From a virus, in the IMG/VR virus record IMGVR_UViG_3300027503_000009: a DNA stretch of 64,000 bases; one strand, given 5' to 3'. Shown in pieces: positions 5,609 to 23,057 of this stretch (the stretch's first letter is position 1; each line of letters starts with the position of its first letter). Position numbers and translations under genes: made by a program. The notes below the pieces were generated by a model. It did no database searches, was not told the DNA's origin, and was given only the letters and a program-made list of their open reading frames with translations.

Positions 5609-5613
5609 TTCGT

Positions 5614-5781: not shown

Positions 5782-5873
5782 AGGATTTACAAGCATTATA
5801 ATATGTCACTAATACCAATTGGAACATATCCAGATAATTTTGATATTGAAACTAATTTTTAAAAAGGAATAAT

Positions 5874-6170: not shown

Positions 6171-6186
6171 ATTTAAAGAGGTAAGA

Positions 6187-6303: not shown

Positions 6304-6358
6304 GGTCTTCCCTGTCCACGATATTTTTTAAAACTTCTTTTCTTACTTTTATTCATTG

Positions 6359-6398
6359 AAGACCGCTTAGGATCACGAATGTCCTGGGCGGTCTTTTT
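6359..6398 (+). terminator. intrinsic terminator
   Basis: aagaccgcttagga...tcctgggcggtctt stem followed by T tract. Confidence 0.6.
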
Positions 6399-6483
6399 CC
6401 ATTTTGATCTGCTTTCTAATCTTGTACCTTCATCAAATTTCAATCTTGCCATTAATTTTCTCCTGAAACTATATATAAGAGAT

Positions 6484-6726
6484 ATGAAAGAATATTTGCA
6501 AGAAGAATTAAAAACAAAATCATTTCTTATTTCTTTTAAATTTTGTGATAAAAAAGTAAGAAGTTACAAGATAACACTAAATAAAGATATAATACCAAAA
6601 GAAGCATTTTTAACTATTGGTCCAGAAACAAAATTTGCAACTGTGTGGGACATAGAAAATGAAAAATGGATAGCTTTTAGTTGGGATAAAATTTATAAAT
6701 TGGAAGAAATAAATGGCACAATATAA
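6484..6726 (+). CDS. small SH3/WYL-like beta-barrel phage protein
   Basis: R.Y..TL...IP...VWDIENEKWIAF.W pattern; ATG at 6484. Confidence 0.65.
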   Translation: MKEYLQEELKTKSFLISFKFCDKKVRSYKITLNKDIIPKEAFLTIGPETKFATVWDIENEKWIAFSWDKIYKLEEINGTI

Positions 6727-8065: not shown

Positions 8066-8077
8066 AGAGGTAAAAAC

Positions 8078-8266
8078 ATGGATGAGAAAATTTTAAATTA
8101 TTTTTTGAACAACGCTTCACCAGCACAAATTATAGATTTTCAAAAAAAGAAAACCATAACACAAAAGTATAAATATCTTTTGCAGTTTGATTGGATAAAT
8201 CAAGATCAATACACAAAGTATACAAGGAAGAAAAATGAAAACAAAACTTTATTGCGAAGTGTGTGA
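8078..8266 (+). CDS. hypothetical protein
   Basis: SD gagg; 62 aa. Confidence 0.55.
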   Translation: MDEKILNYFLNNASPAQIIDFQKKKTITQKYKYLLQFDWINQDQYTKYTRKKNENKTLLRSV

Positions 8267-8408
8267 TTTAGAATTTACAGTAAATGCAAAAAACACATCA
8301 GTGCCAGTAAAATTCTGCCCTTTCTGCGGCACACACGACGAAGAATCTTTTGATTTTCTAAAAGATGACGAAGACGATTATCCAGAAGAACCTGAAGATG
8401 AATATTAA
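8235..8408 (+). CDS. small Zn-ribbon protein with acidic tail (57 aa)
   Basis: MKTKLYCEVC...FCPFCG...DDEDDYPEEPEDEY; not in ORF track. Confidence 0.7.
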   Translation: MKTKLYCEVCDLEFTVNAKNTSVPVKFCPFCGTHDEESFDFLKDDEDDYPEEPEDEY

Positions 8409-8423
8409 TGACGAAGTACATCA

Positions 8424-8996
8424 ATGCTTTATATTGGAATTGATTATTCTATAACATCACCCTCAATTTGCACATTCTATGGAGACAAAAAATCTTTTGA
8501 TCCTAGAATGTGCAATTTCTTTTATTACAACAAAACAAAACAAATTTCTCCTCTTGAATTTGTACACCAAACAACACCACCAGAAAATTACAAATCCCCA
8601 ATCAACAGATTTACCTTAATAGCAAACTGGACAATTAGATGCATTGATATAACAAAACAAGCATATGATTATCCAGAAACTATGATAATCATAGAAGATT
8701 ATTCATTTGGATCAAAAGGTAAGATATTTGAATTAGCAGAAAATTGTGGAATAATGAAATATATGTTAGAAGTGGAAAATTACAAATATCAAAAAATTGC
8801 TCCTACCACATTAAAGAAATATGCAACAAGTTCAGGTAGAAGCAATAAAGATGATATGTATGATAAATTTTTTGAAGAAACACAGTTAAAGCTAAAAGAA
8901 ACATTCTCAAAAAAGAAAATTAAAATATCTTCACCTGTATCAGATTTGGTAGATAGTTATTACTTGTGTAAATATCTGGTGTTTCCACCAGAATAA
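8424..8996 (+). CDS. RuvC-like Holliday junction resolvase / RNase H-fold nuclease
   Basis: YIGIDYS...IIIEDYSFGS...LKKYAT..G..NK...DLVDSY. Confidence 0.8.
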   Translation: MLYIGIDYSITSPSICTFYGDKKSFDPRMCNFFYYNKTKQISPLEFVHQTTPPENYKSPINRFTLIANWTIRCIDITKQAYDYPETMIIIEDYSFGSKGKIFELAENCGIMKYMLEVENYKYQKIAPTTLKKYATSSGRSNKDDMYDKFFEETQLKLKETFSKKKIKISSPVSDLVDSYYLCKYLVFPPE

Positions 8997-9033
8997 AAAC
9001 ATCTGGTGTTTCCACCAGAATAAAAACATCTGG
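8974..9033. repeat. 27-bp tandem repeat (2 copies + partial), each with a 7-bp hairpin
   Basis: atctggtgtttccaccagaataaaaac x2; tctggtg/caccaga stem. Confidence 0.9.
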
Positions 9034-9181
9034 GGAAAAAATTCTGGGGGAAAAATTTTTGGCGGGAAAAATTTTGGGGGGAATTTTTTTATTTTTTTAG
9101 ATTGTGTTAGGTTGGGTGTGTTTTCTGGGGAAAAGAAATAAAGTTTTTTAAAGTGGGGGATAATACATAATACCCTACCGG

Positions 9182-9199
9182 GGGAGTACTAGTACTCCC
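9182..9199. repeat. 18-bp perfect palindrome
   Basis: gggagtactagtactccc. Confidence 0.95.
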
Positions 9200-9236
9200 A
9201 CTTTAAGGTTGTGTTAGTACTAGTACCAAAAGGGGC

Positions 9237-9473
9237 TTAAGCCCCTTTTGCCAGCCACCAGTCGCATGATTGTTTGAGTATAGTTTGGGCCTCACCCAAA
9301 ACCCAATCACGGTGATCGTCGCTCATCTTATAGTAAGGATCAATCCGGAGATTATCCAGAATCGTTTGAAAAAATTCGGGATTGTTTTCGTTCCCCACAA
9401 TTAAATCAGCATACGCCAGCAAAATTTTGCTGGCGGAGTTGCGGTCATTCAACATCTTCAGTAACTTTTCCAT
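9237..9473 (-). CDS. hypothetical early protein
   Basis: 78 aa ORF; promoter-like ttgaca upstream. Confidence 0.7.
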   Translation of the reverse strand: MEKLLKMLNDRNSASKILLAYADLIVGNENNPEFFQTILDNLRIDPYYKMSDDHRDWVLGEAQTILKQSCDWWLAKGA

Positions 9474-9510
9474 AATTCATTCTCCCATGAAAACGTGGTT
9501 TCTGTCAATG

Positions 9511-9538
9511 AAAAAAAGGGGGTTTCCCCCCTTTTTTT
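9511..9538. terminator. bidirectional intrinsic terminator
   Basis: A tract-ggggg-ttt(c)-ccccc-T tract. Confidence 0.8.
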
Positions 9539-9745
9539 CTACTCAAACGTGATAACGTTGAAACCCAACGCCTTGAAAATATCGGTCAATTCTTCGACCG
9601 ATTCACCGTCCCATTCCGGCTCAAACTCCGGAAAGTTCCATTCCCCCTCAGCCATCATTTCCTGCAATTCCTGATCCGTAGGACCGGACATTTCCTCGCA
9701 GTTAATCTGCGTGTCGAAATCGTCAAATTCGAAATTGTTGGTCAT
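9539..9745 (-). CDS. small highly acidic protein
   Basis: 68 aa, D/E and F/W rich; tandem aagg SD motifs. Confidence 0.75.
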   Translation of the reverse strand: MTNNFEFDDFDTQINCEEMSGPTDQELQEMMAEGEWNFPEFEPEWDGESVEELTDIFKALGFNVITFE

Positions 9746-9871
9746 TTTCCTTTTCCTTTTCCTTTTCTGTAGTGGTGTATCCCCTACACCTATAGATTAC
9801 CACACTATCGGACAGAATCAAACGAAAAATGACGGGAAACGATATTTTTTTCGTTTCCCGTCATGACGGGA

Positions 9872-10492
9872 TTAGATCCCGTGGATTCGTTTCCACGTCA
9901 CCCAAGTAATAGCTTGAACCTGAGATGCGGACAAACCAACAATTCCCGCTACCATCCGGTATGCGGAAATAATCGCAGAACGTTCCCGTTCTGCGATATG
10001 CGGCATTGTCGCTACAGTGTAGCGATAGCCTACCGCAACGCTATAGGCATGAACGTCTACGGTAACCTTATCGTCACCGTTCTTATCACCGTTGCGGAGG
10101 TTATCAGCAAAAGCCGTAACCTTGGGACCGCTCAAAATATGGCGAAACGGTTCGTTCCGTTTGTCTGCTAACAGGATAGCAGCTGCCTTGTCGATGTTGC
10201 GACGATAGCCCGCAACACCGGACACTAACGATAACGGCTTATCGTTAGCGATAGCGTCGGCCAAAATATCAATTCCATTCAAATTTGAAGTCCAACGGAT
10301 ACCCGGCGATAATGCGGCAGTTGCATCAACTACCGCATCGAACGAAAAGTTAGAAACACGGGCAATAACCCGTAATTGTTCGTGGGCGGCGGTGTACCAT
10401 GCACCCCCGGAGCGTTTTTCTTCCGGCGTCGCCATATTGTAGACGGCGAGGATGTTGGTCATGAAATCGTTGGTCATACGAAAAATGGTCAT
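9872..10492 (-). CDS. conserved phage protein, possible HhH-glycosylase-like fold
   Basis: G..WY, LSP...W..N, GPKV.AF..N, VTVDVHA, QVQAITW motifs. Confidence 0.6.
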   Translation of the reverse strand: MTIFRMTNDFMTNILAVYNMATPEEKRSGGAWYTAAHEQLRVIARVSNFSFDAVVDATAALSPGIRWTSNLNGIDILADAIANDKPLSLVSGVAGYRRNIDKAAAILLADKRNEPFRHILSGPKVTAFADNLRNGDKNGDDKVTVDVHAYSVAVGYRYTVATMPHIAERERSAIISAYRMVAGIVGLSASQVQAITWVTWKRIHGI

Positions 10493-10692
10493 TTTTTCCT
10501 TTTCTGTTTGGCGCTGGCCTCAACTCTTATAGATTACCATAGGCCAGAACTAAACTGCAATACCCTACCACGAAAAAACTACATAAATTCCATAAATACC
10601 CCCCATAAGGAAAACGAATGATAGCGCATCCAAAATCATATTGATAACGTTGTTTTTCATACTGTTATTCTCTCATGAAAAAATGGGGATTG

Positions 10693-10908
10693 TCAATCCC
10701 CATTTTCATTATTTTCCATATCTTCAATGACTTCAATCATCTCACGGTACAACGGGCAATAGTTCCAGTGACCAACATGATGTCCCAACATCAAATCGAA
10801 ATGCTCATATTTTTCACCGTTCCACTCCCAACGGGAATGGATTAAATTATATTCATTCCCGTTGTGATAGACCGTCATGATTTTTTCTTCAATGTAATTT
10901 TGTTCCAT
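10693..10908 (-). CDS. hypothetical early protein
   Basis: TTGACA-17-TACCAT-6 nt-ATG. Confidence 0.7.
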   Translation of the reverse strand: MEQNYIEEKIMTVYHNGNEYNLIHSRWEWNGEKYEHFDLMLGHHVGHWNYCPLYREMIEVIEDMENNENGD

Positions 10909-10964
10909 GAGTCAATGGTATCAAGGTCAGAAAAAAATGTCAAGAAAAAAACAAAAAAAATTTT

Positions 10965-11135
10965 GGTACTATCGGTCCTGGTGCCAGTACTAGTACCTCG
11001 CCAGGTCTGGTACTATTGGTCCTGGTGGTACTATCGGAAGGGGATGGGCGTACTAGTACTAGTGACCAGTTAGTACTAATGCGCCCATCCGCAGTACTAG
11101 TACCGTTGACCAGACGGTACTAGTGGTACTGGTAG
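10965..11135. repeat. GTAC/(G)TACTAGTAC motif cluster with long hairpin
   Basis: 12 GTAC in about 170 bp; ggatgggcg...cgcccatcc stem (11042-11090). Confidence 0.9.
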
Positions 11136-11151
11136 GCAAAGGAACTACCAG

Positions 11152-11346
11152 TTAATCTTCCCAAACAAACTTCGCAGAATTTAACTTAACTTGCCCCCAT
11201 TGGTCAACTTGCCAACTCATTCCGGCCCAATCAAACAACCAATGTTCCCACAAGTTAGACCAACGCATGTTTGCGAGAATAATCTTCGCATCATATGATC
11301 TGAACTTCTCTTGAATTGAGGCGACAATCTCAGGCGTGGGTGTCAT
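11152..11346 (-). CDS. hypothetical Trp-rich early protein
   Basis: own promoter TTGACA-17-TAAGAT. Confidence 0.7.
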   Translation of the reverse strand: MTPTPEIVASIQEKFRSYDAKIILANMRWSNLWEHWLFDWAGMSWQVDQWGQVKLNSAKFVWED

Positions 11347-11401
11347 ATGTTCCTATCTTAGCACGATGTGTTCAGGTTGTCAACCTGATGTGTTCAAATT
11401 T

Positions 11402-11505
11402 CCTTTTAATTAAGTCCTTTTCCGGCATTATGCGTAGGTCATCAATACTTTTGGAGGGGTACAAACGACCCTTACGCATTGACGGAAAAGGACTTAATTA
11501 AAAGG
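11402..11505. repeat. long inverted repeat (23-bp perfect arms)
   Basis: ccttttaattaagtccttttccg / cggaaaaggacttaattaaaagg, plus inner atgcgta/tacgcat. Confidence 0.9.
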
Positions 11506-11510
11506 TGGGG

Positions 11511-11774
11511 CTACTGCCCCACCTTCTTGCTGATGTGACGGGCGATAATCTTGCCCGTCACCTGATTGCGAACACGCTTCTTATTGCCATTCTCAGCAAC
11601 AATCTGGTTGTAGAGGTACATAACAGCCCCAAGATTGGAGTCCACCAGATTGATCGTGGTGTACTTGGACTTGTCCACACCAACTTGAATCTGGTAGCCA
11701 GTGTTGGGGGTGTTCTGAATCGCACCCTTCTCATTCTGGAAGGAAGCGGTCTGGAAGTTGAAGGTCATCTGCAT
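11511..11774 (-). CDS. hypothetical early protein
   Basis: promoter, hairpin 5' UTR and SD aagga. Confidence 0.75.
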   Translation of the reverse strand: MQMTFNFQTASFQNEKGAIQNTPNTGYQIQVGVDKSKYTTINLVDSNLGAVMYLYNQIVAENGNKKRVRNQVTGKIIARHISKKVGQ

Positions 11775-11876
11775 TTTCGTTTTTTCCTTTTCTATCAGGC
11801 TTGCCCTGACTCTTTTAGTATCTCACAGGTTCGGTTGCTTGTCAACAGTTTTCAGAACTTTTTTTCTTGGGGGAGG

Positions 11877-12158
11877 TTATTCCTCCCCCATCCCCTCATC
11901 GCCACCATCCTCATTTTCTACATCACCCACAAACTCAACTCCCGGCCAGTAGAAAACATATCCATAACCCATGTTATCCCATTTCACATTGGTTGGGACG
12001 TAAACGTTTCTACGTCCCATTTCATACATCACATCCAAAATCTCAGCCATTGTGTCAACCACAATGGCAAGGCAAGATTTGCCACCCATATAACGGCCAG
12101 AATAGCCCCTGCACTCAAAACCACAATCTTCGAGAAATTCCTGCAAATCGCTTTTCAT
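11877..12158 (-). CDS. hypothetical early protein
   Basis: YSGRYMGGKSC...DNMG motifs; leaderless promoter. Confidence 0.75.
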   Translation of the reverse strand: MKSDLQEFLEDCGFECRGYSGRYMGGKSCLAIVVDTMAEILDVMYEMGRRNVYVPTNVKWDNMGYGYVFYWPGVEFVGDVENEDGGDEGMGEE

Positions 12159-12196
12159 GATTTTATTCTCCCATACTGGAAGGGGTTTGTCAACCC

Positions 12197-12412
12197 CTAG
12201 AACAACTTTTTGTGAAATTTCACAACTTTGGAAATCGCAGACTGCAAAGTTTTGCAGGGAACTAAGGAAATCTTCTCTTCAGAAAACAACATCAGTTCTT
12301 TTTTCTTAGGGTTCCAATCAGCAACCAGTGTGCCATTCAGCAAAAACTCAGTGAAGCAGTAGATGCTGCCACGGTCAAAGGTGTTGATTTCAAGTTTCTG
12401 TTTTTCAACCAT
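12197..12412 (-). CDS. hypothetical early protein
   Basis: TTGCCA-17-TAATAT directly before ATG. Confidence 0.7.
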   Translation of the reverse strand: MVEKQKLEINTFDRGSIYCFTEFLLNGTLVADWNPKKKELMLFSEEKISLVPCKTLQSAISKVVKFHKKLF

Positions 12413-12430
12413 GATTTATATTACCACGAC

Positions 12431-12521
12431 CCCTCAGAGAATGGCAACAGAAAAATGATGAAAACTAGAAGTTTTTTCTGTTGCCATTCTCTGAGGGGTG
12501 TCAGGGGTACCCCTGACACCC
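12431..12521. repeat. 25-bp inverted repeat abutting a 26-bp perfect palindrome
   Basis: ccctcagagaatggcaacagaaaaa / tttttctgttgccattctctgaggg; gggtgtcaggggtacccctgacaccc (12496-12521). Confidence 0.9.
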
Positions 12522-12534
12522 AAAACCCCAGGAA

Positions 12535-12550
12535 GGGCCGTTTCCGGCCC
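12535..12550 (-). terminator. GC hairpin terminator (identical copy at 16042-16057)
   Basis: gggccg-gaaa-cggccc on - strand. Confidence 0.65.
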
Positions 12551-12559
12551 AGGAATCAC

Positions 12560-12778
12560 CTATTCCCCGTAGTAGTCGTAAGACTCATACTGCGATTCAT
12601 ACATCGAATCCAGGTGCTGGTCCTCCAGCTCAAAACTAGGATCTTCAGGATAGTCCTGGAAATCGTCAGAATCATAGATGTCGGCCATTTCAGCCTGAGC
12701 ATCTTCCCAGGCTTCATTCCGACCCATTTCTTCCAGGTCGTTTTCGTAGAACTCGTAGGTGTCGTAGTCTTCAAACAT
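12560..12778 (-). CDS. very acidic small protein (72 aa)
   Basis: 27 D/E, 1 R, 0 K; SD aggag; ATG at 12778. Confidence 0.75.
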   Translation of the reverse strand: MFEDYDTYEFYENDLEEMGRNEAWEDAQAEMADIYDSDDFQDYPEDPSFELEDQHLDSMYESQYESYDYYGE

Positions 12779-12893
12779 TCCGTTTTCTCCTTTTGTCTTG
12801 GCTCTTGCCCTGACTCTTTTAGTATCGCACGTTGTAGCAGGGAAGTCAACAACTTTTTTTGTTTTTTTGTGGGGGATTTTCGCCCCCCACACT

Positions 12894-13130
12894 TTACTTC
12901 ACCTGAACCGCAACCTGTTTGATTTCAGCAACATAGACATCGCCCACATCAAACGTTCCATATGTCATTGGAGACTTCACCGCACAGTACCAGCGAGCGA
13001 AGGGGTTTTGCTTTTCCTTTTCCGGAGTCTGATAGGTCTTGAGAACACGCCATTCCCAGGAACCATCAAAACTCTTGAAAATCATATGAGGATTGTCAAT
13101 CTTGGCAGTTTTGCCGAATGGATTCTTCAT
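12894..13130 (-). CDS. conserved hypothetical phage protein
   Basis: WEWRVLKTYQ...ARW.CAVKSP.T.G..D.GD.Y; leaderless promoter. Confidence 0.8.
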   Translation of the reverse strand: MKNPFGKTAKIDNPHMIFKSFDGSWEWRVLKTYQTPEKEKQNPFARWYCAVKSPMTYGTFDVGDVYVAEIKQVAVQVK

Positions 13131-13168
13131 ATTGTTAGTATCTCACATTCTGGGGGGTTTGTCAACAG

Positions 13169-13492
13169 TTACCAGTGAAAAAGTCCCCTCTTTTTTTCAC
13201 CGTTTGCGTAAACCACTAAAACATCACCATCACCATCACCATCACCAAAAACAACAGGATCACCATAAGTAGACGGGACATCATCGCCAACTTCACCAGA
13301 CCATTTGCTGGACCAGCGATCACCGCAACAAGGGCAGTCAACGCCAGAATCACAACCATCGAAGTAAACACCCTCTACTTCTAAAACACGATTGTTCGCA
13401 TCTTCGGCGTTTTCAGCCTCAACAACAACGTGTTTTGCTGGTCCGGTGAAATGACCACCTGAATTATTTTGAGAAAAATGGAAGAATTTCAT
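13169..13492 (-). CDS. conserved hypothetical phage protein (Cys cluster)
   Basis: QNNSGG.F, YFDGC...DCPCCGDRW; leaderless promoter. Confidence 0.8.
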   Translation of the reverse strand: MKFFHFSQNNSGGHFTGPAKHVVVEAENAEDANNRVLEVEGVYFDGCDSGVDCPCCGDRWSSKWSGEVGDDVPSTYGDPVVFGDGDGDGDVLVVYANGEKKRGLFHW

Positions 13493-13549
13493 ACTTTTAG
13501 TTTCTCACATTCTGGGGGGTTTGTCAACCCCCCACTTGAAGTTTTTTTG

Positions 13550-13813
13550 CTATTCAGCGATTCGGCGTTCAAACACCCCACGTTCCAGAGTGGCAGTGTC
13601 AGAACCATCAGTGTGGAACGTGATGGGGAAGTAGTCTTCACCAATCTGAGCATAAACTTCAGTTTCATTCATACCCAAGTCAATCCAGTCACCAACAGCA
13701 CCAGCGTAAGTCTCAGATTCTACAACATTTTCAGGATTGAAATTCCCAGGAAGGTCACCAACCAGGAAACGCTTGATAGGGAGGGTCGAAAACTTAACTT
13801 TCTTCAGAAACAT
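13550..13813 (-). CDS. hypothetical early protein
   Basis: promoter, conserved 5' UTR and SD aggag. Confidence 0.75.
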   Translation of the reverse strand: MFLKKVKFSTLPIKRFLVGDLPGNFNPENVVESETYAGAVGDWIDLGMNETEVYAQIGEDYFPITFHTDGSDTATLERGVFERRIAE

Positions 13814-13853
13814 GGTCTTTTCTCCTTTTGTCCTGGCTCTTGCCCTGACTCTT

Positions 13854-13976
13854 TTACTTTACCACAACCTTTTTCCGGTTGTCAACAGAATTTTTCAAGT
13901 TTTTGTGAAAGTCACAAACGTTCCGTTTGCAGTTGGGGCAGTTCAGAATCGAAAGCATCAGGTGTTGTTTGCTCAT
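13854..13976 (-). CDS. 40-aa peptide with CxxC...C..H
   Basis: own TTGACA/TAAAGT promoter 6 nt before ATG. Confidence 0.5.
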   Translation of the reverse strand: MSKQHLMLSILNCPNCKRNVCDFHKNLKNSVDNRKKVVVK

Positions 13977-13980
13977 GTTT

Positions 13981-14130
13981 TTACTTTACCACAGAAGTTT
14001 TGGGGATGTCAAGAGTTTTTTTCAACTCTTTCGAAAAATCCAGCACAGTCGGAAATGCAATAGAAAACAAAGAAACAACCAGGACAATCAACAGAATGTC
14101 AAACATCGAATCACTGATAAGCCGTTTCAT
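13981..14130 (-). CDS. 49-aa membrane peptide
   Basis: leaderless promoter; hydrophobic ILLIVLVVSLFSIAF. Confidence 0.6.
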   Translation of the reverse strand: MKRLISDSMFDILLIVLVVSLFSIAFPTVLDFSKELKKTLDIPKTSVVK

Positions 14131-14165
14131 GAATCCATCATCTCACAGTCTGGGGAATTTGTCAA

Positions 14166-14276
14166 CTACTTAATTGCACAATCTGCTTTCATGGCGAAAA
14201 AAATAATAATCACACCGAAAAGATAACCCGCCATGAAAAACGTAAGATATTTGAGTCGAAGTTCTTTTCTTGTCAT
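14166..14276 (-). CDS. 36-aa membrane peptide
   Basis: promoter nearly identical to that of 13981-14130; hydrophobic core. Confidence 0.6.
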   Translation of the reverse strand: MTRKELRLKYLTFFMAGYLFGVIIIFFAMKADCAIK

Positions 14277-14307
14277 GAATCCATCATCTCACAGTCTGAG
14301 GGGTTTG

Positions 14308-14523
14308 TCAACCCCAAGAACCAAGTTTTTTCTTTTTTGTTGCGGCAACCAGAACAGCTTCAGAAATCATTAAAAAAACTTCAGAATCAATCACAGTCTG
14401 GATTTCCCGCAACTTGTAACCCTTTTGTTGCCAATTGATTACAATGGGTTTCAATGCTTCATACACTTCATCCGCAAGTTGTTGACCTTCAAGAGTTTTT
14501 GCTTCATACTCATTGTAAAGCAT
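14308..14523 (-). CDS. hypothetical protein
   Basis: 71 aa, start coupled to upstream stop. Confidence 0.7.
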   Translation of the reverse strand: MLYNEYEAKTLEGQQLADEVYEALKPIVINWQQKGYKLREIQTVIDSEVFLMISEAVLVAATKKKKLGSWG

Positions 14524-14660
14524 TATTCTTCCTCCTTCTTGTGCTTGCGCTTGCGATAATTCTTGCTTTTGGTTTTCTTGTCCTGGATAATAGATCCGGT
14601 CTTTACACCAGACCGGATCTTAGCAGGATTAAACTTGGGCAGCTTGATGTGTTCAACCAT
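14523..14660 (-). CDS. 45-aa basic peptide (ArfA-like pattern, tentative)
   Basis: MVEHIKLPKFNPAKIRSGVKTGSIIQDKKTKSKNYRKRKHKKEEE; leaderless promoter. Confidence 0.6.
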   Translation of the reverse strand: MVEHIKLPKFNPAKIRSGVKTGSIIQDKKTKSKNYRKRKHKKEEE

Positions 14661-14695
14661 ACTGTTATTATCCCATGTGTTCTTCACAATGTCAA

Positions 14696-14899
14696 CTACT
14701 CTTCAAGTTTTTTTTGTAAGGCACTGATAATTAAAGGTAATTCTTCTTTCGACAAGGTGATTCTACTCATAATTTTTCCTTGATCGTCATGTTGGCGAAT
14801 CTCAAACAACCCAAGTCCATCAGCATCATCTGTGACTGCAATATGGTCACCTGTGTCATCATTCCAAATTCTGTAGCAAATTTCCATACTGTGCCGCAT
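14696..14899 (-). CDS. hypothetical protein
   Basis: SD aggag; 67 aa. Confidence 0.7.
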   Translation of the reverse strand: MRHSMEICYRIWNDDTGDHIAVTDDADGLGLFEIRQHDDQGKIMSRITLSKEELPLIISALQKKLEE

Positions 14900-14907
14900 T
14901 TTTTCTC

Positions 14908-15027
14908 CTAGTTAAAAGGTGATTTGTATTTCTTACCACATTCAAGGCAACTGTAATGACCATTAACAGGTCTGGTCATCTTTGTGTGGAATTCCCGACA
15001 AAACCAAACACTAAGCTTTTGCAGCAT
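14908..15027 (-). CDS. 39-aa Zn-binding peptide
   Basis: MLQKLSVWFCREFHTKMTRPVNGHYSCLECGKKYKSPFN (C..H / CxxC). Confidence 0.6.
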   Translation of the reverse strand: MLQKLSVWFCREFHTKMTRPVNGHYSCLECGKKYKSPFN

Positions 15028-15202
15028 TTTGATTATCCTTTAACGTAGACAAAACCAAAATCTGCATCGTCACAAAGTCGATAATAGCCTGAGCGTTCAG
15101 GTAATCATCGTCGTTTTCATCGAACCTGCTAATAATCAGGTTCATCAGACCGATTACCTTCATGTTTCCGCTAATCAGATCGTCAATCACATCGTTCATC
15201 AT
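15011..15202 (-). CDS. hypothetical protein
   Basis: TTGACA-17-GATAAT-6 nt-ATG(15202). Confidence 0.65.
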   Translation of the reverse strand: MMNDVIDDLISGNMKVIGLMNLIISRFDENDDDYLNAQAIIDFVTMQILVLSTLKDNQNAAKA

Positions 15203-15240
15203 GATATTATTATCGCACCTTTCTTTTCGGTTGTCAAGCA

Positions 15241-15438
15241 TTATTTTGTAGACCTAAACCAAGACCTAGACATAGACCTAGACCAAGACCCAGACGCAGA
15301 CCAAGACCCAGACCCAGACCAAGACCCAGACCCAGACCCAGACCAAGACCCAGACCCAGACCTAGACCAAGACCTAGATCTAGACCCAGACATAGACCAA
15401 GACCAAATATTTCTTTTGTAGATTGATTTCTTGATCAT
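15241..15438 (-). CDS. (Ser-X)n repeat peptide, copy A
   Basis: MIKKSIYKRNIW + SW SM SG SR... dipeptide tail. Confidence 0.75.
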   Translation of the reverse strand: MIKKSIYKRNIWSWSMSGSRSRSWSRSGSGSWSGSGSGSWSGSGSWSASGSWSRSMSRSWFRSTK

Positions 15439-15444
15439 AGTTTA

Positions 15445-15603
15445 TTATCCAATTTCAGAATAAGTCCTAGACACAGACCAAGACCTAGACCCAGACCAAG
15501 ACCTAGACCAAGTCCTAGACCCAGACCTAGACCCATACAAAGACCAAGACCCAGACCTAGACATAGACCAAATATTTCTTTTGTAGATTGATTTCTTGAT
15601 CAT
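15445..15603 (-). CDS. (Ser-X)n repeat peptide, copy B (52 aa; not in ORF track)
   Basis: MIKKSIYKRNIWSMSRSGSWSLYGSRSGSRTWSRSWSGSRSWSVSRTYSEIG. Confidence 0.75.
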   Translation of the reverse strand: MIKKSIYKRNIWSMSRSGSWSLYGSRSGSRTWSRSWSGSRSWSVSRTYSEIG

Positions 15604-15607
15604 AAAC

Positions 15608-15637
15608 AAAAAAGTTTGGGGGATTTCTCCCCCAAAC
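15608..15637 (-). terminator. terminator-like hairpin between the Sm-like gene and copy B
   Basis: gtttggggga-gaaa-tcccccaaac followed by T tract. Confidence 0.7.
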
Positions 15638-15639
15638 CA

Positions 15640-15906
15640 CTAACCCTTCTTACCGATGCCGAAAGACTCAATTGCAGAAGTCTGCACATACCAAGTCTTC
15701 GTGGGAAGGTTCTGAGCGTCCTTGTACTTCGAATCGCTGAACGCACCAGTCTCATAAACAATCTTGGCATCGTCCAGAAGGACACAGGTATCGTTCACTC
15801 CAGTGAGCGTACCAGCATAGATGTAGTTCGCACAGAACAACATCACGTGCTCACCAAGAAGGGCCACAAGACCTTCACCCTGAACCTCAGTCACAATCTT
15901 CTTCAT
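15640..15906 (-). CDS. Sm/LSm/Hfq-fold small protein
   Basis: Sm1-like LLGEHV.LF....Y.G.L.GVNDTCVLL.DA and Sm2-like WYVQTSAIESF; own promoter and SD aggag. Confidence 0.7.
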   Translation of the reverse strand: MKKIVTEVQGEGLVALLGEHVMLFCANYIYAGTLTGVNDTCVLLDDAKIVYETGAFSDSKYKDAQNLPTKTWYVQTSAIESFGIGKKG

Positions 15907-16075
15907 AATCAGTTTTCTCCTTTTTTCTTGTCAGATTTCCTCTGACTCTTTTAGTATCTCACACCCTGTGTGATTTGTCAAGTTTTTTGTTTTTTGTTTT
16001 TCTAGCCTCCAACTACCTGCTAGAAATTTTAAGGGCAGGAAGGGCCGTTTCCGGCCCAAGAAATGCTATTCTATA

Positions 16076-16141
16076 TTAGTCGTCCCAGTCATACTCCTGG
16101 TAGTCGTCATGATCTTTGTAGTCGTTCCAGTTAATAAGCAT
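16076..16141 (-). CDS. 21-aa acidic micropeptide (tentative)
   Basis: MLINWNDYKDHDDYQEYDWDD; ATG overlaps the end of 16131-16481. Confidence 0.4.
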   Translation of the reverse strand: MLINWNDYKDHDDYQEYDWDD

Positions 16142-16481
16142 AGATATTTGCCTTTCCGTTTTCGATGAAGAGGTCACACCAGGCGGAAGTTTCAATTTTC
16201 TTTCCGGTGAGGACATTGATGAAGTAATCTGCCTCATAGGGATTGTAACGAACCGTGTTCCTTTTCAGGAAAAGCTCTTGGTCTTTTTGCCAATCACCTT
16301 CAACAAAGGCATGAACATTTTTCTTTTTTTCACGAAGAACACGTTCCCGTCCAGACTTGGAAACAGTGAACTTGGCATTTTTCAGGATGATGGTGTCGGT
16401 GTGGGCAATAACCTTGCGGGTTTTTTTGTCCATGACAGAGAAAACTTTCTTGTGAAGGTTGAAGTAGACTTTAACTCTCAT
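16131..16481 (-). CDS. conserved hypothetical phage protein
   Basis: VYFNLHK..FSV, GR.RV.REK.KNVHAFV.G, YNPY motifs. Confidence 0.85.
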   Translation of the reverse strand: MRVKVYFNLHKKVFSVMDKKTRKVIAHTDTIILKNAKFTVSKSGRERVLREKKKNVHAFVEGDWQKDQELFLKRNTVRYNPYEADYFINVLTGKKIETSAWCDLFIENGKANIYAY

Positions 16482-16519
16482 GTTTTTATTCTCTCACATT
16501 CTGATCAGAATGTCAAGGT

Positions 16520-16714
16520 TTATTTTGACTCAGACCTAGACCCAGACCCAGACGCAGACCAAGACCCAGACCAAGACCCAGACCCAGACCAAGACACAGA
16601 CCAAGACCCAGACTCAGACCTAGACCAAGACCTAGACCCAGACCAAGACGCAAACTGAGACTCAGACCCAGACCTAGACCAAATATTTCTTTTGTAGATT
16701 GATTTCTTGGTCAT
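16520..16714 (-). CDS. (Ser-X)n repeat peptide, copy C
   Basis: MTKKSIYKRNIW + SX tail; own leaderless promoter TTGACA-17-GAGAAT. Confidence 0.8.
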   Translation of the reverse strand: MTKKSIYKRNIWSRSGSESQFASWSGSRSWSRSESGSWSVSWSGSGSWSGSWSASGSGSRSESK

Positions 16715-16773
16715 GTTTTTATTCTCTCACATTCTAGGTGAAATGTCAAGGGGGAATTTCTTCCCCCTGCAAA

Positions 16774-17235
16774 CTACCAGGATGCTTGGTAGTAATAGGT
16801 CGTTCGACCATCAACCCATTCATCCTTGATTTCCTGGAAAAGTTTGATGGCACTTTCTAGGTCGTTCCAGTACCACTCATCAATTTGAATGGAACCAAAG
16901 AAAAACCCAGAAACAGGAGGAAACATTTCAAGAGCAATATCTTCTCTCTTAGAGATCAGGACTTCTTTCATGGTTAAAAGAAGATTGTCAACATTTTCCT
17001 CATAGAAAATAATTTCTTGACATTCATCCCTACCATCAGCAAGCTGCACAAACCAGTTGTGGAGTGCATTGAACTTGCGGAAATAACCAAGTTCCTCAGT
17101 CACATAGGTGACTTTATCCTTCTTGATGTGGGTAGGTTGTCCGTTGTTGGTCACAACAACTTCATACTTGTTTTCCTTGTCGAAAGACCAATTCTGAATG
17201 TAGCTCTTGCGGTTGATGTATTGATCAAGTCCCAT
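16774..17235 (-). CDS. conserved hypothetical phage protein
   Basis: MGLDQY...YFRK.NA.H.WF...GFFFG...YYYQASW. Confidence 0.85.
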   Translation of the reverse strand: MGLDQYINRKSYIQNWSFDKENKYEVVVTNNGQPTHIKKDKVTYVTEELGYFRKFNALHNWFVQLADGRDECQEIIFYEENVDNLLLTMKEVLISKREDIALEMFPPVSGFFFGSIQIDEWYWNDLESAIKLFQEIKDEWVDGRTTYYYQASW

Positions 17236-17279
17236 GATTAAATCTTATCACCATTCAGGATGTTTGTCAAGAAGAATTT

Positions 17280-17355
17280 TGGTGCGCCCAGCAGGGTTCG
17301 AACCTGCGACCCTCTGATTAAAAGTCAGATGCTCTACCAACTGAGCTATGAGCGC
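17280..17355 (-). tRNA. tRNA-Lys (anticodon UUU)
   Basis: 76-nt cloverleaf GCGCTCA...ctTTTaa...GGTTCGAA...GCGCACCA with encoded CCA. Confidence 0.97.
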
Positions 17356-17365
17356 ACATTAAATT

Positions 17366-17440
17366 TGGTAGCCCCGCAGGGATTCGAACCCCGATTCTAG
17401 GTTTAGAAGACCTATGTCCTATCCATTGAACGACAGGGCC
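17366..17440 (-). tRNA. tRNA-Arg (anticodon UCU)
   Basis: 75-nt cloverleaf GGCCCTG...ctTCTaa...GGTTCGAAT...CTACCA. Confidence 0.96.
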
Positions 17441-17448
17441 AAAAACTT

Positions 17449-17646
17449 TTAGGCAGTCTGATACTTGCCCTTGACTTCCTTGTTCAGAAACTTTCCAGAA
17501 GAAGGTGCGTTCACCAGATCCTCATAGACCTGAACAGGAACGTCCTTGTAGTCATACTTCTTACCGGAAGTAAACTTCACAGTGAGAATCTGATTGATGT
17601 GGTCATAACCAACACCAGAAACAGCGGAACTTTCAAGCTTTACCAT
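17449..17646 (-). CDS. KTSC domain protein
   Basis: SSAV..VGYD...L.V.F.SG..Y.Y..VP..VY..L..A.S.GKF; ATG 17646. Confidence 0.9.
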   Translation of the reverse strand: MVKLESSAVSGVGYDHINQILTVKFTSGKKYDYKDVPVQVYEDLVNAPSSGKFLNKEVKGKYQTA

Positions 17647-17708
17647 ATTTATATCCTTTTTTGTGGGTTGTGAGTTTCTCTCACTCACAACCCTAGTATA
17701 CCACAGAA

Positions 17709-17927
17709 TTACTTCTTACGCAAGCCCTTGTCGATATCAACAGCAGTTTTGAATGCAGGAATATCAAAATGTTCCTTGTATTCATCCAGCGGCATTTTCC
17801 GAAATTCATCAACGAAGGAACCTTCAACAATTTCTGCCAGTTCCCATTCACTCATAGATTCAACCAACTTGGTTGCATAAACCTGAGTCAGCAAATCCAA
17901 TTCTTTTACAGTCAGATCGTTAATCAT
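17709..17927 (-). CDS. hypothetical protein
   Basis: 72 aa; resembles neighbour 17936-18145. Confidence 0.7.
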   Translation of the reverse strand: MINDLTVKELDLLTQVYATKLVESMSEWELAEIVEGSFVDEFRKMPLDEYKEHFDIPAFKTAVDIDKGLRKK

Positions 17928-17935
17928 GTTTTCCT

Positions 17936-18145
17936 CTACTGTTCCAGTGTACCAGATTCCATGTCGTCTGTCAAGAGTTCAGGGGCAACTTCTGTGATTT
18001 CTGCCAGAATATCTTCAGTCCCCATCTGCTCCAAACGTGCATGAATGGATTCATAGGCATGATTGATGAGATCCTCCATGTCCATTGTATCAACAATCAA
18101 TTCTACATATTCGTTAATGAGGTCGTGCAGTTGTTCGTTACTCAT
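17936..18145 (-). CDS. acidic hypothetical protein
   Basis: YVE.IVD.MD..DL pattern; leaderless promoter. Confidence 0.75.
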   Translation of the reverse strand: MSNEQLHDLINEYVELIVDTMDMEDLINHAYESIHARLEQMGTEDILAEITEVAPELLTDDMESGTLEQ

Positions 18146-18147
18146 GA

Positions 18148-18357
18148 TTATATCTTAGCACCTTTCAGGTTAGTTGTCAACTCAATTTTTGAAGTTTTCA
18201 ATCCATACCACAATTTCATATAAGAACGGACTCTTGCCCACTTTCCGGTGAAAGTGATTTGTCGATAACAAGAACCAGTTCTAATACCGGAACAAGGGAT
18301 TGATTTTTCCCCAGACCTGGATGCAGTCCACACTCTTGAAATGCGTGATTTCATCAT
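18148..18357 (-). CDS. basic Ser/Arg/Trp-rich peptide, possible diverged SX-family member
   Basis: own leaderless promoter. Confidence 0.6.
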   Translation of the reverse strand: MMKSRISRVWTASRSGEKSIPCSGIRTGSCYRQITFTGKWARVRSYMKLWYGLKTSKIELTTNLKGAKI

Positions 18358-18388
18358 GAAACTATATTAGCACCTTTCTGTGTGTTTG

Positions 18389-18556
18389 TCAAGACCTAGA
18401 CCCAGACCAAGACCTAGACATAGACTCAGACTCAGACCAAGATCCAGACCTAGACATAGACTCAGACTCAGACCAAGATCCAGACCAAGACCCAGACATA
18501 GACATAGACATAGACTCAGACCAAGACTTAAATTTTTGTGTTCTTGATTTCTTCAT
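18389..18556 (-). CDS. (Ser-X)n repeat peptide, copy D (55 aa; variant leader; not in ORF track)
   Basis: MKKSRTQKFK + 22 SX pairs + S; promoter TTGACG-17-TATGAT-6 nt-ATG. Confidence 0.75.
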   Translation of the reverse strand: MKKSRTQKFKSWSESMSMSMSGSWSGSWSESESMSRSGSWSESESMSRSWSGSRS

Positions 18557-18587
18557 GATTATATCATACCACAGGCTGATGTGTTCG

Positions 18588-18779
18588 TCAAGACCCAGAC
18601 CCAGACCAAGACCAAGACCTAGACCCAGACATAGACCCAGACCTAGACCAAGACCCAGACCAAGACCCAGACTCAGACCCAGACATAGACCTAGACCTAG
18701 ACCCAGACCAAGACCAAGACCAAGACCAAGACCCAGTCCCAGACCAAATATTTCTTTTGTAGATTGATTTCTTGATCAT
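18588..18779 (-). CDS. (Ser-X)n repeat peptide, copy E
   Basis: MIKKSIYKRNIW + SX tail. Confidence 0.75.
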   Translation of the reverse strand: MIKKSIYKRNIWSGTGSWSWSWSWSGSRSRSMSGSESGSWSGSWSRSGSMSGSRSWSWSGSGS

Positions 18780-18785
18780 AGTTTA

Positions 18786-18971
18786 TTAACCAGTTTCAGA
18801 ATAAGACCTAGACCCAGACCTAGACTCAGACCTAGACCCAGACCAAGACCTAGACCCAAACCCATACCAAGACCTAGACCTAGATCCAGACCCAGACCAA
18901 GACCCAGACATAGACCAAGACATAGACCTAGACGCAGACCAAATATTTCTTTTGTAGATTGATTTCTTCAT
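18786..18971 (-). CDS. (Ser-X)n repeat peptide, copy F (61 aa)
   Basis: MKKSIYKRNIW...SYSETG; TG-TATAAT 6 nt before ATG 18971. Confidence 0.78.
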   Translation of the reverse strand: MKKSIYKRNIWSASRSMSWSMSGSWSGSGSRSRSWYGFGSRSWSGSRSESRSGSRSYSETG

Positions 18972-18996
18972 GATTATATTATACCACAGGTGGCCC

Positions 18997-19998
18997 TTAA
19001 CGGGCCACCTTGAAACAAGTGGATTTCGCAACTTTCACGAAATCTTCATCAGACTTCGCAAACTTCAGAATTTTCGCCAACTTCAACACCATGCGAAGCG
19101 ACAATTCCCGCAGCTTCTTGTGGTTGTCCTCCACAAACTGCATCAACGTCTGCTGCTGGTTTTCTTCCAGTCCCAGAGTGTGAAGCATATCGGTGTTCTG
19201 AACCACGTCCTTGATTCGGATCAGGAACTCACGGGTATTTCGCAAATTCAAATCCAAGTAGAACGAACGGGAAATCAGTGCCTGATAGTGAGGTGACATT
19301 TTGTTGCCCTGCTGGATCATGGCATCAAAATCCCGATTGGTGACGAAAATCACAGAACCACGAAATTCAAACGTGGAAGGAATTTCATCGCCAGCATCAT
19401 CTTCCCACTTCTTTTCCGTTTTCCAGGAAATCATGCGGCGTTTGGTGCTATCCAAAGCAGCTTTCCAGATGTTCAGACCAACTTCATCATCGAAAACAGA
19501 ATCAGCGTCATCAATCAGCAAAACACTGTTTTCATGACGATTTTCCCACAACATCCGGAAAATGCCAGTAGGACGAACAAAGCCCTTAACAGGAGTGTAG
19601 TTAATCTTCTCATCAAGGAAAGCATTCTCCAACATCATTTCGATGTTGTAGGTCTTGCCGATGCCAGGATTGCCGGAAACAATCATCGACGTGACCTTGC
19701 CTTCAATAACAGCTTCCACCATGCGATCCATCGAAGAGAAACCATCACGCTGACGCTCCAGAATTTCCTCGTCAGTTTCCACAACAAGAGGAACAACTTC
19801 ACCAGGAGCTTCAGCAACACCATTAACATTTCGCAGCACGTTCAGATCGAAGATGCCACGAGAAATCTTACCAAGAGTCCAAAACTTAACAGGAATGCGA
19901 ACATTGAAAATTTCAGCTTCCTGCTTAATAGTCTTAGCACGAAGAATGGTGCCGCCGTGCTTTTCAGTCATCTGGTCAACGAAGTTCGTGATGTTCAT
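18997..19998 (-). CDS. AAA+ family ATPase
   Basis: Walker A GNPGIGKT, Walker B LLIDDAD, FVTN sensor, ALISR, LRELSLR. Confidence 0.88.
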   Translation of the reverse strand: MNITNFVDQMTEKHGGTILRAKTIKQEAEIFNVRIPVKFWTLGKISRGIFDLNVLRNVNGVAEAPGEVVPLVVETDEEILERQRDGFSSMDRMVEAVIEGKVTSMIVSGNPGIGKTYNIEMMLENAFLDEKINYTPVKGFVRPTGIFRMLWENRHENSVLLIDDADSVFDDEVGLNIWKAALDSTKRRMISWKTEKKWEDDAGDEIPSTFEFRGSVIFVTNRDFDAMIQQGNKMSPHYQALISRSFYLDLNLRNTREFLIRIKDVVQNTDMLHTLGLEENQQQTLMQFVEDNHKKLRELSLRMVLKLAKILKFAKSDEDFVKVAKSTCFKVAR

Positions 19999-20033
19999 AT
20001 TGTTAGTATCTCACAGTTTGGTCAGGTTGTCAA

Positions 20034-20699
20034 CTAGCCAATCTGAATAAATTCAGATTTTTTGTTTCGTGCTTTGCCTTTGGCTTTCAATCCAACAATC
20101 ACGCCTTTGGCATCCAAGAAGCGAAGATCAGTTTCGTCGCCATTTACCACAGGATAGCCCCAATGAGTTTTGGGCAACTTGTCGAAAACAACAGCGACAT
20201 TAACACCATGCTTCAACGCTTCCAAGCACTTCTCCATATTATCACCACTGAAAGAATAAGTCAAGTGGTAATTTTCAGAAACACGCTCCCAAGGGCGATC
20301 CAGTTTAGTGTAATCATAGAACTGGACATTAGGACGTGCAGTGTGCAATGCCTTAGCCAACCAAGGCAGATCAGAAGTTCCATTCGGACGAAAAACAGGA
20401 ACCAGATTAGATTTTACCGCAGCAGCACAAGCTTTGTCAAGTTCTTTCAAAGCCTGGGCAATAAATTTTTCACGATTTTCAAACAACTTCTTGGTCTTGT
20501 TGATGCGTCCATTCTGGACATTAGAGAATGCACCCATGCCAGAAGTGTTCAGGCAGAATGCCAAACATTCTTTAGAAGCACCAGCACAGACCTGATGACC
20601 AGACAAATCACCAGGAGCCAGATAAATGATTCCGGTCTGATATCCAAGCTTCTGACCCTTGACCGTTTTTGCGTTTGCGTCGATGTTCCAGATCGTCAT
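20034..20699 (-). CDS. GP88-like Cys-motif protein (radical-SAM-related)
   Basis: C-x6-C-x3-C (CAGASKECLAFC), RPNGTSD, FYDYTK, D..DLRFLD. Confidence 0.75.
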   Translation of the reverse strand: MTIWNIDANAKTVKGQKLGYQTGIIYLAPGDLSGHQVCAGASKECLAFCLNTSGMGAFSNVQNGRINKTKKLFENREKFIAQALKELDKACAAAVKSNLVPVFRPNGTSDLPWLAKALHTARPNVQFYDYTKLDRPWERVSENYHLTYSFSGDNMEKCLEALKHGVNVAVVFDKLPKTHWGYPVVNGDETDLRFLDAKGVIVGLKAKGKARNKKSEFIQIG

Positions 20700-20740
20700 A
20701 TGAAACCAGTATAGCAAACTGAATATCAGACTGTCAACAA

Positions 20741-20965
20741 CTAAATGAACCAGCGACCATTAACTTTCTTTAATCTTCCATTTTCAATATCAGCAACAGT
20801 CACTCTTGCCCAATATTTGGCTTCACCGACAATATCATTATCAATTGTAGTACCGGAATCATATTCTTCATCTTCAATAAAAATTGAAAAATTAATGTTG
20901 TTTGCTTTCCAAGCATTCACATGAACTTTAATTCCGGTGTTTGTGTGTTGTGTAATGGTAATCAT
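20741..20965 (-). CDS. hypothetical protein
   Basis: TATACT shortly before ATG. Confidence 0.6.
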   Translation of the reverse strand: MITITQHTNTGIKVHVNAWKANNINFSIFIEDEEYDSGTTIDNDIVGEAKYWARVTVADIENGRLKKVNGRWFI

Positions 20966-20981
20966 TGATTACAGTATATCA

Positions 20982-21170
20982 CTACCGGATCATTGTTTCA
21001 ACCAGTTTTCTTCCTTTATAGAAAAAAAGTTTTTCCCAATCATGTTCTGATCTTAACCATAAACATTTAAGAAAGAAAATGAAATTTTCTACATCTCCTT
21101 CATTATGAAAATTGGAATATTTAAATTTAATCACTTCATTAGGAAATTGAACTTTCAATGTGATGTACAT
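20982..21170 (-). CDS. hypothetical protein
   Basis: TTGACA-17-TATAAT-6 nt-ATG. Confidence 0.65.
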   Translation of the reverse strand: MYITLKVQFPNEVIKFKYSNFHNEGDVENFIFFLKCLWLRSEHDWEKLFFYKGRKLVETMIR

Positions 21171-22193: not shown

Positions 22194-23057
22194 TTACCAT
22201 AACTTTTCTTTTTTATTGTAGTAATAAATTTTATTTTTTATATTGTGACATTCTTTACATTCTGCACTTAGATTATATTTTCCATCTTTCTTTTTATTAT
22301 ATTGGGAAAATAATTTTTCTTTTTTACACATTGAGCAAATTTTTGTTTGTGGTGTCTCTAATGTATAGTTTGCTGACATCCTTTTTAATTTTCTTGTTAT
22401 ATGTCCTTTTTTAGCAATTTCACTTCTTTCTTCTGGTGTGCTACTCTCCAACCATTTTGTTGCTCTTTTTTTAGCAATTTCACTTCTTTCTTCTGGTGTG
22501 CTACTCTCCAACCATTTTGTTGCTCCTTTTTTACCAATTTTACTTTTTTGTTCTGGTGTTAATTTAGCTAATGATGATTCATATCCCTTTTTACCCCCTT
22601 TTTTACCAATTTCACTTAATTGTTCTGGTGTTAATTTAGCTAATGATGATTCATATCCCTTTTTACCATTTTCACTTCTTTGTTCTGGAGTTAATTTAGC
22701 TAATGCTGTTGCATATGCTTTTTTACCAATTTCACTTAATTGTTCTGGTGTTAAATAATAATTTTTTCCACTTATTGCATAGTTTAAGTTTTTTGGTTTG
22801 TCGTGGATATTTTCTCTGATAATTTTTTCTTCTGCAATACCCAAACTAATTCTATTTTTGTGATGTTCGAGAATTATTTTTTTCTTACGTTCTTTGGGCC
22901 AGTTTTTTATAATTTCTTTTGCTGTTTTTGGTGATCCCATATAACGACAATCCTGCTCAGGGTTAACTGAGCAGGATCTCTTGCCGAAATAATTATGAAT
23001 TTCTACATTGTTTTCATCAAGTAGTTCTAGTTTGTAAATGTAGTGATAACAGGACAT
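22194..23057 (-). CDS. GIY-YIG (Seg-like) homing endonuclease-related protein with internal repeats and C-terminal Cys4 module
   Basis: YHYIYK...YFGKRS...YMGS; six TPE(Q/E).SE.(G/A)KK repeats; CSMC...CKEC. Confidence 0.7.
   Translation of the reverse strand: MSCYHYIYKLELLDENNVEIHNYFGKRSCSVNPEQDCRYMGSPKTAKEIIKNWPKERKKKIILEHHKNRISLGIAEEKIIRENIHDKPKNLNYAISGKNYYLTPEQLSEIGKKAYATALAKLTPEQRSENGKKGYESSLAKLTPEQLSEIGKKGGKKGYESSLAKLTPEQKSKIGKKGATKWLESSTPEERSEIAKKRATKWLESSTPEERSEIAKKGHITRKLKRMSANYTLETPQTKICSMCKKEKLFSQYNKKKDGKYNLSAECKECHNIKNKIYYYNKKEKLW

Follow-up and report, generated by a model that had tools for sequence, protein, structure and literature searches.

In eukaryotes, SmB, SmD1, SmD3 and LSm4 join an Sm-fold core to a basic, disordered element of Arg/Gly dipeptide repeats. 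The RS domains of SR splicing factors and the poly-GR and poly-PR products of C9orf72 bind RNA and are prone to form condensates, and indolicidin, tritrpticin and the synthetic (RW)n peptides are short, cationic and rich in Trp and Arg. Here we describe a viral locus that shares traits with all of these. It lies in a stretch of 64,000 nucleotides (nt) from the IMG/VR virus record IMGVR_UViG_3300027503_000009 (the whole of this stretch is called the window below), where six short open reading frames (ORFs) of the minus strand encode runs of Ser-X dipeptides. We found that such Ser-X arrays and a small acidic Sm-fold protein form a widespread two-component phage module. The six arrays are, to judge from their sequences and those of their relatives, most likely real, translated early genes of a T4-like phage. 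Our confidence in the identity of the genes and of the module is high; we also favour, with moderate confidence, the fuller explanation in which the translated early genes and the Sm-like protein make up a two-part module with an RNA-directed role. A preliminary description of the locus knew of no function for the peptides, and a full-text literature search found no description of a Ser-X/Sm-like family.

All six ORFs reported in the preliminary description are present on the minus strand and encode 52-65 residues; each begins with a short basic leader, to which 17-26 Ser-X units are joined. Two of them had been thought missing from the list of ORFs; they are in fact listed there with upstream TTG starts (15445..15609 and 18786..19031), which may explain their apparent absence. 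Copy 1 (18786..18971; 61 residues, leader MKKSIYKRNIW, isoelectric point (pI) 11.6, net charge +9) heads a tandem cluster of three genes and has an AAA-ATPase gene upstream. Copy 2 (18588..18779; 63 residues) has its ATG 6 nt past the TAA of copy 1, and its TGA stop falls within the TTGACG -35 box of the promoter of copy 3 (18389..18556; 55 residues), a Met/Glu-rich copy with a net charge of only +3. Copy 4 (16520..16714; 64 residues, leader MTKKSIYKRNIW) is solitary and has its own promoter. Copy 5 (15445..15603; 52 residues) lies directly 3' of the gene for the Sm-like protein and has no promoter of its own, and the ATG of copy 6 (15241..15438; 65 residues, net charge +11) again follows the preceding TAA by 6 nt. 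For copy 2, this spacing suggests that its translation is coupled to that of copy 1. The leader KKSIYKRNIW is, as had been claimed, common to five copies, and the 30 nt of leader DNA are identical in all five (0 matches expected from shuffles); copy 3 carries the variant leader MKKSRTQKFK. Tandem Repeats Finder detects period-6 arrays beneath every copy, the DNA being (TCT-NGG)n: with few exceptions Ser is encoded by TCT, and the codons at X are TGG (Trp), GGG (Gly) or AGG (Arg), with the single-base variants ATG, GAG, GCG and GTG giving Met, Glu, Ala and Val. Unusually for the family, CGG is absent from the arrays of the window, and Met and Glu occur more often at X. The peptides have a pI of 10-12 and a net charge of +3 to +11, without any hydrophobic segment or signal peptide, and their core is a strict dipeptide polymer without Cys. 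A search of proteins with the peptide 15241-15438 returned a single weak match, probably because of composition-bias correction; the same peptide had no PHROGs match, and an ESM Atlas feature search with it gave nothing usable.

The preliminary description argued for expression from the fact that all copies keep the frame. This, however, proves nothing about coding, because a 6-nt unit lets slippage preserve the frame automatically. The same property speaks for a reading of the arrays as non-coding hexanucleotide microsatellites or DNA elements (binding arrays, AGACC restriction decoys or recombination hot spots) with open frames as a by-product, as do several other open frames, Leu-Gly in the sense direction and Arg-Pro and Asp-X in antisense, and the variation of copy number and length among close relatives. 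We therefore turned to stops in homologous loci, which the preliminary description had named as the mark of neutral repeats, using 273 non-redundant family-type arrays (3,946 units) chosen by Ser-codon periodicity alone, with any codon allowed at X. Only 11 stops occupied X positions, 10 of them terminal (the natural stop) and 1 internal, against about 105 internal TAG or TGA codons expected from G-to-A rates at the same positions in non-T codons. Internal stops are thus about 100-fold depleted, as also seen from TTG, which occurs 42 times while internal TAG occurs 0 times. The arrays do not behave as neutral repeats, and neither stops nor frameshifts are frequent in homologous loci. Furthermore, an ATG stands 3-30 codons ahead of the array in 153 of 182 related Ser-X ORFs, and the leaders so defined (median 12 residues, mean net charge +3.4) are simply basic and only loosely conserved between lineages.

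Independent support comes from the Ser codon, surveyed at loci that were found via the partner gene and not via the repeat. It is nearly pure within a locus and varies between loci (TCT in 22, TCG in 16 plus 4 mixed, AGC in 5 and TCA in 2), while the composition of X remains steady (Gly 36%, Arg 27%, Trp 27%). With TCT, TCG, AGC and TCA, the second frame of the same strand reads Leu-Gly, Arg-Gly, Ala-Gly and His/Gln-Gly, and the antisense frame reads Pro-Arg, Pro-Arg, Pro-Ala and Pro-stop, respectively. Only the Ser-X frame is conserved, because the Ser codon changes while Ser-[W/G/R] stays. A non-coding origin has to contend with this change of hexamer under a constant Ser-X, with the antisense frame that turns to Pro-Ala or Pro-stop, with the missing stops and with an arrangement of ATG, leader and promoter like that of real genes, and we consider it very improbable. 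Two narrower candidates were rejected as well: antisense Arg-Pro peptides, whose frame is not kept in the AGC and TCA lineages, and AGACC arrays as a mimic or decoy of a type III restriction site (such as that of EcoP1I), since other lineages use different hexamers. Start-site geometry, stop avoidance and a codon-independent Ser-[W/G/R] pattern thus bear out the proposal of a real, diversified, early-looking family of small proteins. Two side observations concern other Ser-rich arrays in IMG/VR: on several contigs (L095, L122, L126 and L113 among them) the leader ahead of the Ser-[W/G/R] arrays belongs to a second class, M-N-x-A-x-L-R-A-G-F-D, and unrelated (Ser-Arg)n tracts lie inside proteins of about 650 residues on others (L056, L080, L081).

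The partner gene (15640..15906, minus strand), which the preliminary description did not mention, encodes an 88-residue protein of pI 5.2 and lies directly upstream of copies 5 and 6, with 36 nt between it and copy 5. The AlphaFold (AF2) model of the protein has a mean predicted local distance difference test (pLDDT) of 90.7 and shows the Sm fold: after a short helix at the N-terminus comes a barrel formed by a strongly bent beta-sheet of five strands. In an exhaustive structural search (VIA) the top 20 matches were all Sm/LSm proteins (Z 8.2-9.9, root-mean-square deviation 1.9-3.7 Å over 58-76 residues); the best Foldseek matches were likewise all Sm/LSm, and in the ESM Atlas an archaeal LSM cluster matched the protein at a template-modelling (TM) score of 0.75. 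At the sequence level, the protein had no Pfam match up to E 10, DUF6948 (PF22253) included, and a sequence-profile search of the PDB gave noise only. PF22253 and PF01423 (LSM) also found nothing in the nearest relative of the window, which encodes an identical 88-residue protein. Since neither Pfam LSM nor DUF6948 matches it, the protein represents an Sm-fold family without a sequence model.

We found 496 homologues of this protein, none of them named, and confirmed that 272 IMG/VR stretches encode a relative of the partner gene. Neighbourhoods were counted in the best 80 IMG/VR homologue loci, 70 of which had enough downstream DNA. A Ser-X array follows the partner homologue in 58 of these 70 loci, within 150 nt in 49 of them, and in 11 of 13 evaluable loci from metagenome-assembled genomes. 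In the reverse test, which started from 73 arrays found by a DNA pattern alone, profile iteration placed the Sm-like gene directly ahead of the array in 52. No other neighbour recurs in more than 7 of the 80 loci, so the module comprises nothing beyond the Sm-like gene and its peptide genes, of which there may be one or several. In the window, copies 5 and 6 show this canonical arrangement, being on the same strand and directly 3' of the Sm-like gene. There is one such gene for six peptide genes, and the four remaining copies are detached at two further sites, all within 3.4 kb; three of these stand behind a leaderless promoter or extended -10 of their own and the fourth is coupled to the preceding copy. 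A hidden Markov model search found no further Sm-like paralogue upstream of the detached copies. The charges of the two components are complementary, the peptides being strongly basic and the partner mildly acidic. When the region was compared by megablast with the phage records of INPHARED, only tRNAs matched, and tblastn with the partner protein found one uncultured record, MW202825, in which neither module gene is annotated.

The tight linkage implies a joint function, and it argues against the main alternative, in which the peptides would be protein-level effectors independent of RNA and of the Sm-like protein. As such they might perturb membranes in the manner of Arg/Trp antimicrobial peptides or compact the nucleoid (host shut-off), act as defence decoys or inhibitors (Trp-Gly/Ser 'hook' mimicry), or serve as substrates for modification at Ser. 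Their Arg/Trp-rich alternation and high pI do resemble (RW)n-type peptides, their promoters are early ones, four copies are detached from the Sm-like gene, and rapid diversification is typical of arms-race genes. The peptides, however, have no hydrophobic segment, the 80 loci share no neighbouring gene for a kinase, a glycosyltransferase or any other modifier, and overall we think an RNA-independent effector unlikely. The preliminary description had also compared the family with precursors of ribosomally synthesized and post-translationally modified peptides (RiPPs), in which a maturase would recognize the leader and modify a hypervariable, Ser-rich core. The likeness, a leader plus variable core in many paralogues, is superficial. 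The neighbours scanned at about 9.9-23.1 kb (some 20 genes; Pfam and PHROGs, with some small ORFs left out) include DUFs, KTSC, an AAA ATPase, GP88 and an L5 gp82-like protein and match no family of maturation enzymes (such as LanM, YcaO or radical SAM); the only conserved neighbour in the 80 loci is the Sm-fold protein; and neither a Cys-less, strict dipeptide core nor a leader of about 12 residues that is loosely conserved between lineages suits such precursors. We give the RiPP reading almost no credence. Among the functional options listed in the preliminary description, RNA binding or condensate formation fits the Sm-like partner best.

The X codons follow a simple grammar, likewise not remarked on before. 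Position 1 is nearly random (1.88 bits), while position 2 is G in 90% and position 3 in 96% of cases. Trp, Gly and Arg are exactly the NGG box, in which no change at N yields a stop. Diversity retained at N is compatible with selection for a mixture of Trp, Arg and Gly. Synonymous third-base variants are rare (1248 GGG versus 53 GGA, GGT and GGC together), which indicates that the arrays are young or continually homogenized, or that a constraint acts at the level of RNA or DNA. Sm and Hfq rings bind short periodic single-stranded RNA motifs. Together with the extreme codon purity, this would suit a reading in which the periodic (Ser codon-NGG)n mRNA is itself the ligand, for instance as single-stranded RNA on the Sm-like ring, with translation secondary or regulatory. 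An RNA ligand, however, would need neither stop avoidance nor a conserved ATG and basic leader, and the Ser triplet differs wholly between lineages while the amino acid is kept; we regard the mRNA as a rather improbable ligand. With respect to codon use in the window, Arg in the arrays is encoded by AGG nearly throughout (one AGA), the leaders are rich in Lys, and genes for tRNA-Lys(UUU) and tRNA-Arg(UCU) lie at 17280-17440 (minus strand) amid the Ser-X gene cluster; it is possible that these tRNAs supply the Lys- and AGG-rich Ser-X genes.

Turnover of the family can be followed in the nearest relative (L009, G001:C1:33000-48000; 88-97% identical), whose positions 5006-9316 have flanks 85-97% identical to the window. 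It contains seven Ser-X genes arranged as 4+2+1, as opposed to six arranged as 3+1+2 in the window, and orthologous genes differ in length by multiples of the repeat unit (for example, by 12 nt in two of the pairs). Since both arrangement and lengths differ in so close a relative, turnover must be very fast, through slippage and recombination of leader/promoter cassettes. All copies of the nearest relative have leaders of the KKSIYKRNIW type, so the variant MKKSRTQKFK is specific to the lineage of the window. We propose that the arrays evolve via 6-nt slippage and single-base toggling at the first base of the X codon, where stops are impossible; composition would thereby be kept while order and length change quickly.

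A scan of 14800-19200 revealed nine minus-strand promoters of the form TTGACA-17-(TG)-10, and in seven of the nine the -10 element ends 6 nt before an ATG without a Shine-Dalgarno sequence. The preliminary description credited three copies with promoters of their own at this distance. For copies 3 and 4 these are full promoters: TTGACG-17-TATGAT with a TG extension, of the sigma-70 type (18563..18591, minus strand), and TTGACA-17-GAGAAT (16721..16749, minus strand), respectively. Copy 1, however, has an extended -10 only, TGTGGTATAAT (18978..18988, minus strand), located 6 nt before the ATG and 3' of the hairpin of the preceding gene, for which the scan found no -35. The same 6-nt spacing is seen at neighbours with a family match, namely PF25735 L5 gp82-like (ATG 16481), DUF7326 (18145) and phrog_7971 (17235), and at two small family-less ORFs (ATGs 18357 and 15202). 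The latter ATG bears on ORF 15011-15241 (minus strand), whose mechanical start at 15241 sits upstream of its own promoter (15209-15237); its true start is probably ATG 15202, 6 nt after the -10, giving about 63 residues. The Sm-like gene, unlike its neighbours, has a leader of about 46 nt behind its promoter, TTGACA-17-GATACT (15953..15981, minus strand), and a GC-rich hairpin with a T-run that resembles a terminator or attenuator (15613..15638, minus strand) lies between it and copy 5. A -10 ending 6 nt before the ATG points to leaderless mRNAs that start at the ATG, and since the promoters are sigma-70-like, expression is probably early. This layout implies that 14800-19200, and probably the whole island at 9-21 kb, is organized as one-promoter-one-ORF cassettes; early expression in this T4-like phage would then be leaderless as a rule.

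The gene content of the window is that of a T4-like myophage (gp23 capsid, gp20 portal, sheath, large terminase, gp46-like nuclease subunit and UvsW-like helicase), and its closest relatives come from freshwater metagenomes (lake samples); the source is most likely a freshwater T4-like phage. Most of the window has a G+C content of about 30%. The island at about 9-21 kb, with 44% (41-45%), is densely filled with small minus-strand genes and contains all six Ser-X ORFs; it could represent an early block that was acquired horizontally or is under different constraints. The island (~9000-21000) also carries L5 gp82-like PF25735 and GP88 PF17338, families first described in mycobacteriophages. Elsewhere in the window, a transfer-messenger RNA (tmRNA) is encoded at 37206-37628 on the plus strand, with the tag ANTNVLAMSAAA (Rfam tmRNA_permuted 120.8 bits, beta_tmRNA 99.8 bits), and the beta_tmRNA match may hint at a betaproteobacterial host. 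Two longer tandem repeats lie within minus-strand ORFs. One, at 59951-60549, is a long imperfect 18-nt repeat (9/18/60/96-nt) inside the late-region ORF 58069-61146 (1025 residues), whose product is probably a collagen-like fibre protein; the other, at 22404-22754, comprises about 6 copies of a 60-nt unit inside ORF 22194-23057 (287 residues), which has no confident Pfam match.

How the module might work can be proposed as follows. The encoded microproteins are disordered and strongly basic; they would act as polycations whose Arg and Trp residues are the stickers and whose Ser and Gly residues are the spacers, and would bind nucleic acid, most likely RNA. Early in infection they and a ring of the Sm-like protein would jointly sequester RNA or remodel it; the analogy is with Sm/LSm proteins that carry their Arg-Gly tails in cis. 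In the lineage of the window, the peptide gene has been amplified to six copies and has reached two further sites, under leaderless early promoters. An RNA-directed or condensate role for the peptides seems plausible from their composition and linkage; that the two components form a device directed at RNA, similar to Sm/LSm proteins that bear Arg-Gly tails, is a tentative suggestion. More speculative still, and in our opinion doubtful, is a portable phage kit for ribonucleoprotein granules, in which a viral Sm ring and hypervariable Ser-(Trp/Arg/Gly) peptides would condense or sequester RNA, or block RNA-guided or RNA-sensing defence, with the (Ser codon)-NGG repeat as a stop-safe diversification device. 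Several points weigh against our interpretation. Transcription, translation and binding are predicted rather than directly evidenced, and the sticker-spacer/RNA mechanism draws only on composition and analogy. RNA binding by the Sm-like protein is putative: its alignment seems to be without the Arg-Gly of the Sm2 motif, and Pfam LSM does not match it. Only two of the six copies adjoin the Sm-like gene; for the other four, partnership is suggested by paralogy. Finally, the rarity of synonymous variants may mean that the arrays are young or homogenized, or that a constraint on RNA or DNA acts in addition to that on the protein.

If the peptides are made, many phage lineages would possess proteins of a kind that is dropped by annotation pipelines as low-complexity repeats, and the strict pairing with an Sm fold would point to an unexplored RNA-directed step in host takeover. 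The (Ser codon)-NGG grammar, a coding repeat whose variable base gives no stops, bears on how hypervariable disordered proteins evolve. To this the window adds the six-copy expansion, the detachment from the partner and the leaderless one-gene promoters in a T4-like phage.

Set beside known systems, the family resembles RiPP precursors such as the prochlorosins in that its numerous paralogues keep their N-terminus and vary in the rest, but it has no linked modifying enzyme, its core is a Cys-less dipeptide polymer and its leader is very short. With Arg/Trp antimicrobial peptides it shares a cationic, Trp/Arg-rich composition; the phage peptides, however, are 3-5 times longer, half Ser, intracellular (no signal peptide) and linked to an Sm fold. 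With RS domains and the C9orf72 repeats it has in common alternating Arg dipeptide polymers derived from short DNA repeats, but those are eukaryotic domains or aberrant products, whereas the phage genes are dedicated, Trp-rich and, as stop avoidance indicates, selected. A further parallel is with the eukaryotic SmB, SmD1, SmD3 and LSm4 (fold Z 8-9.9), from which the phage module differs in that the repeat, instead of forming a tail, has one or more genes to itself, with Ser alternating with Trp, Gly or Arg, and is multi-copy, hypervariable and viral, and in that the partner has no Pfam LSM match and is known from its predicted fold. The module may be seen as a natural split form of the 'Sm core plus basic repeat tail' design found in eukaryotic small nuclear ribonucleoproteins and processing bodies.

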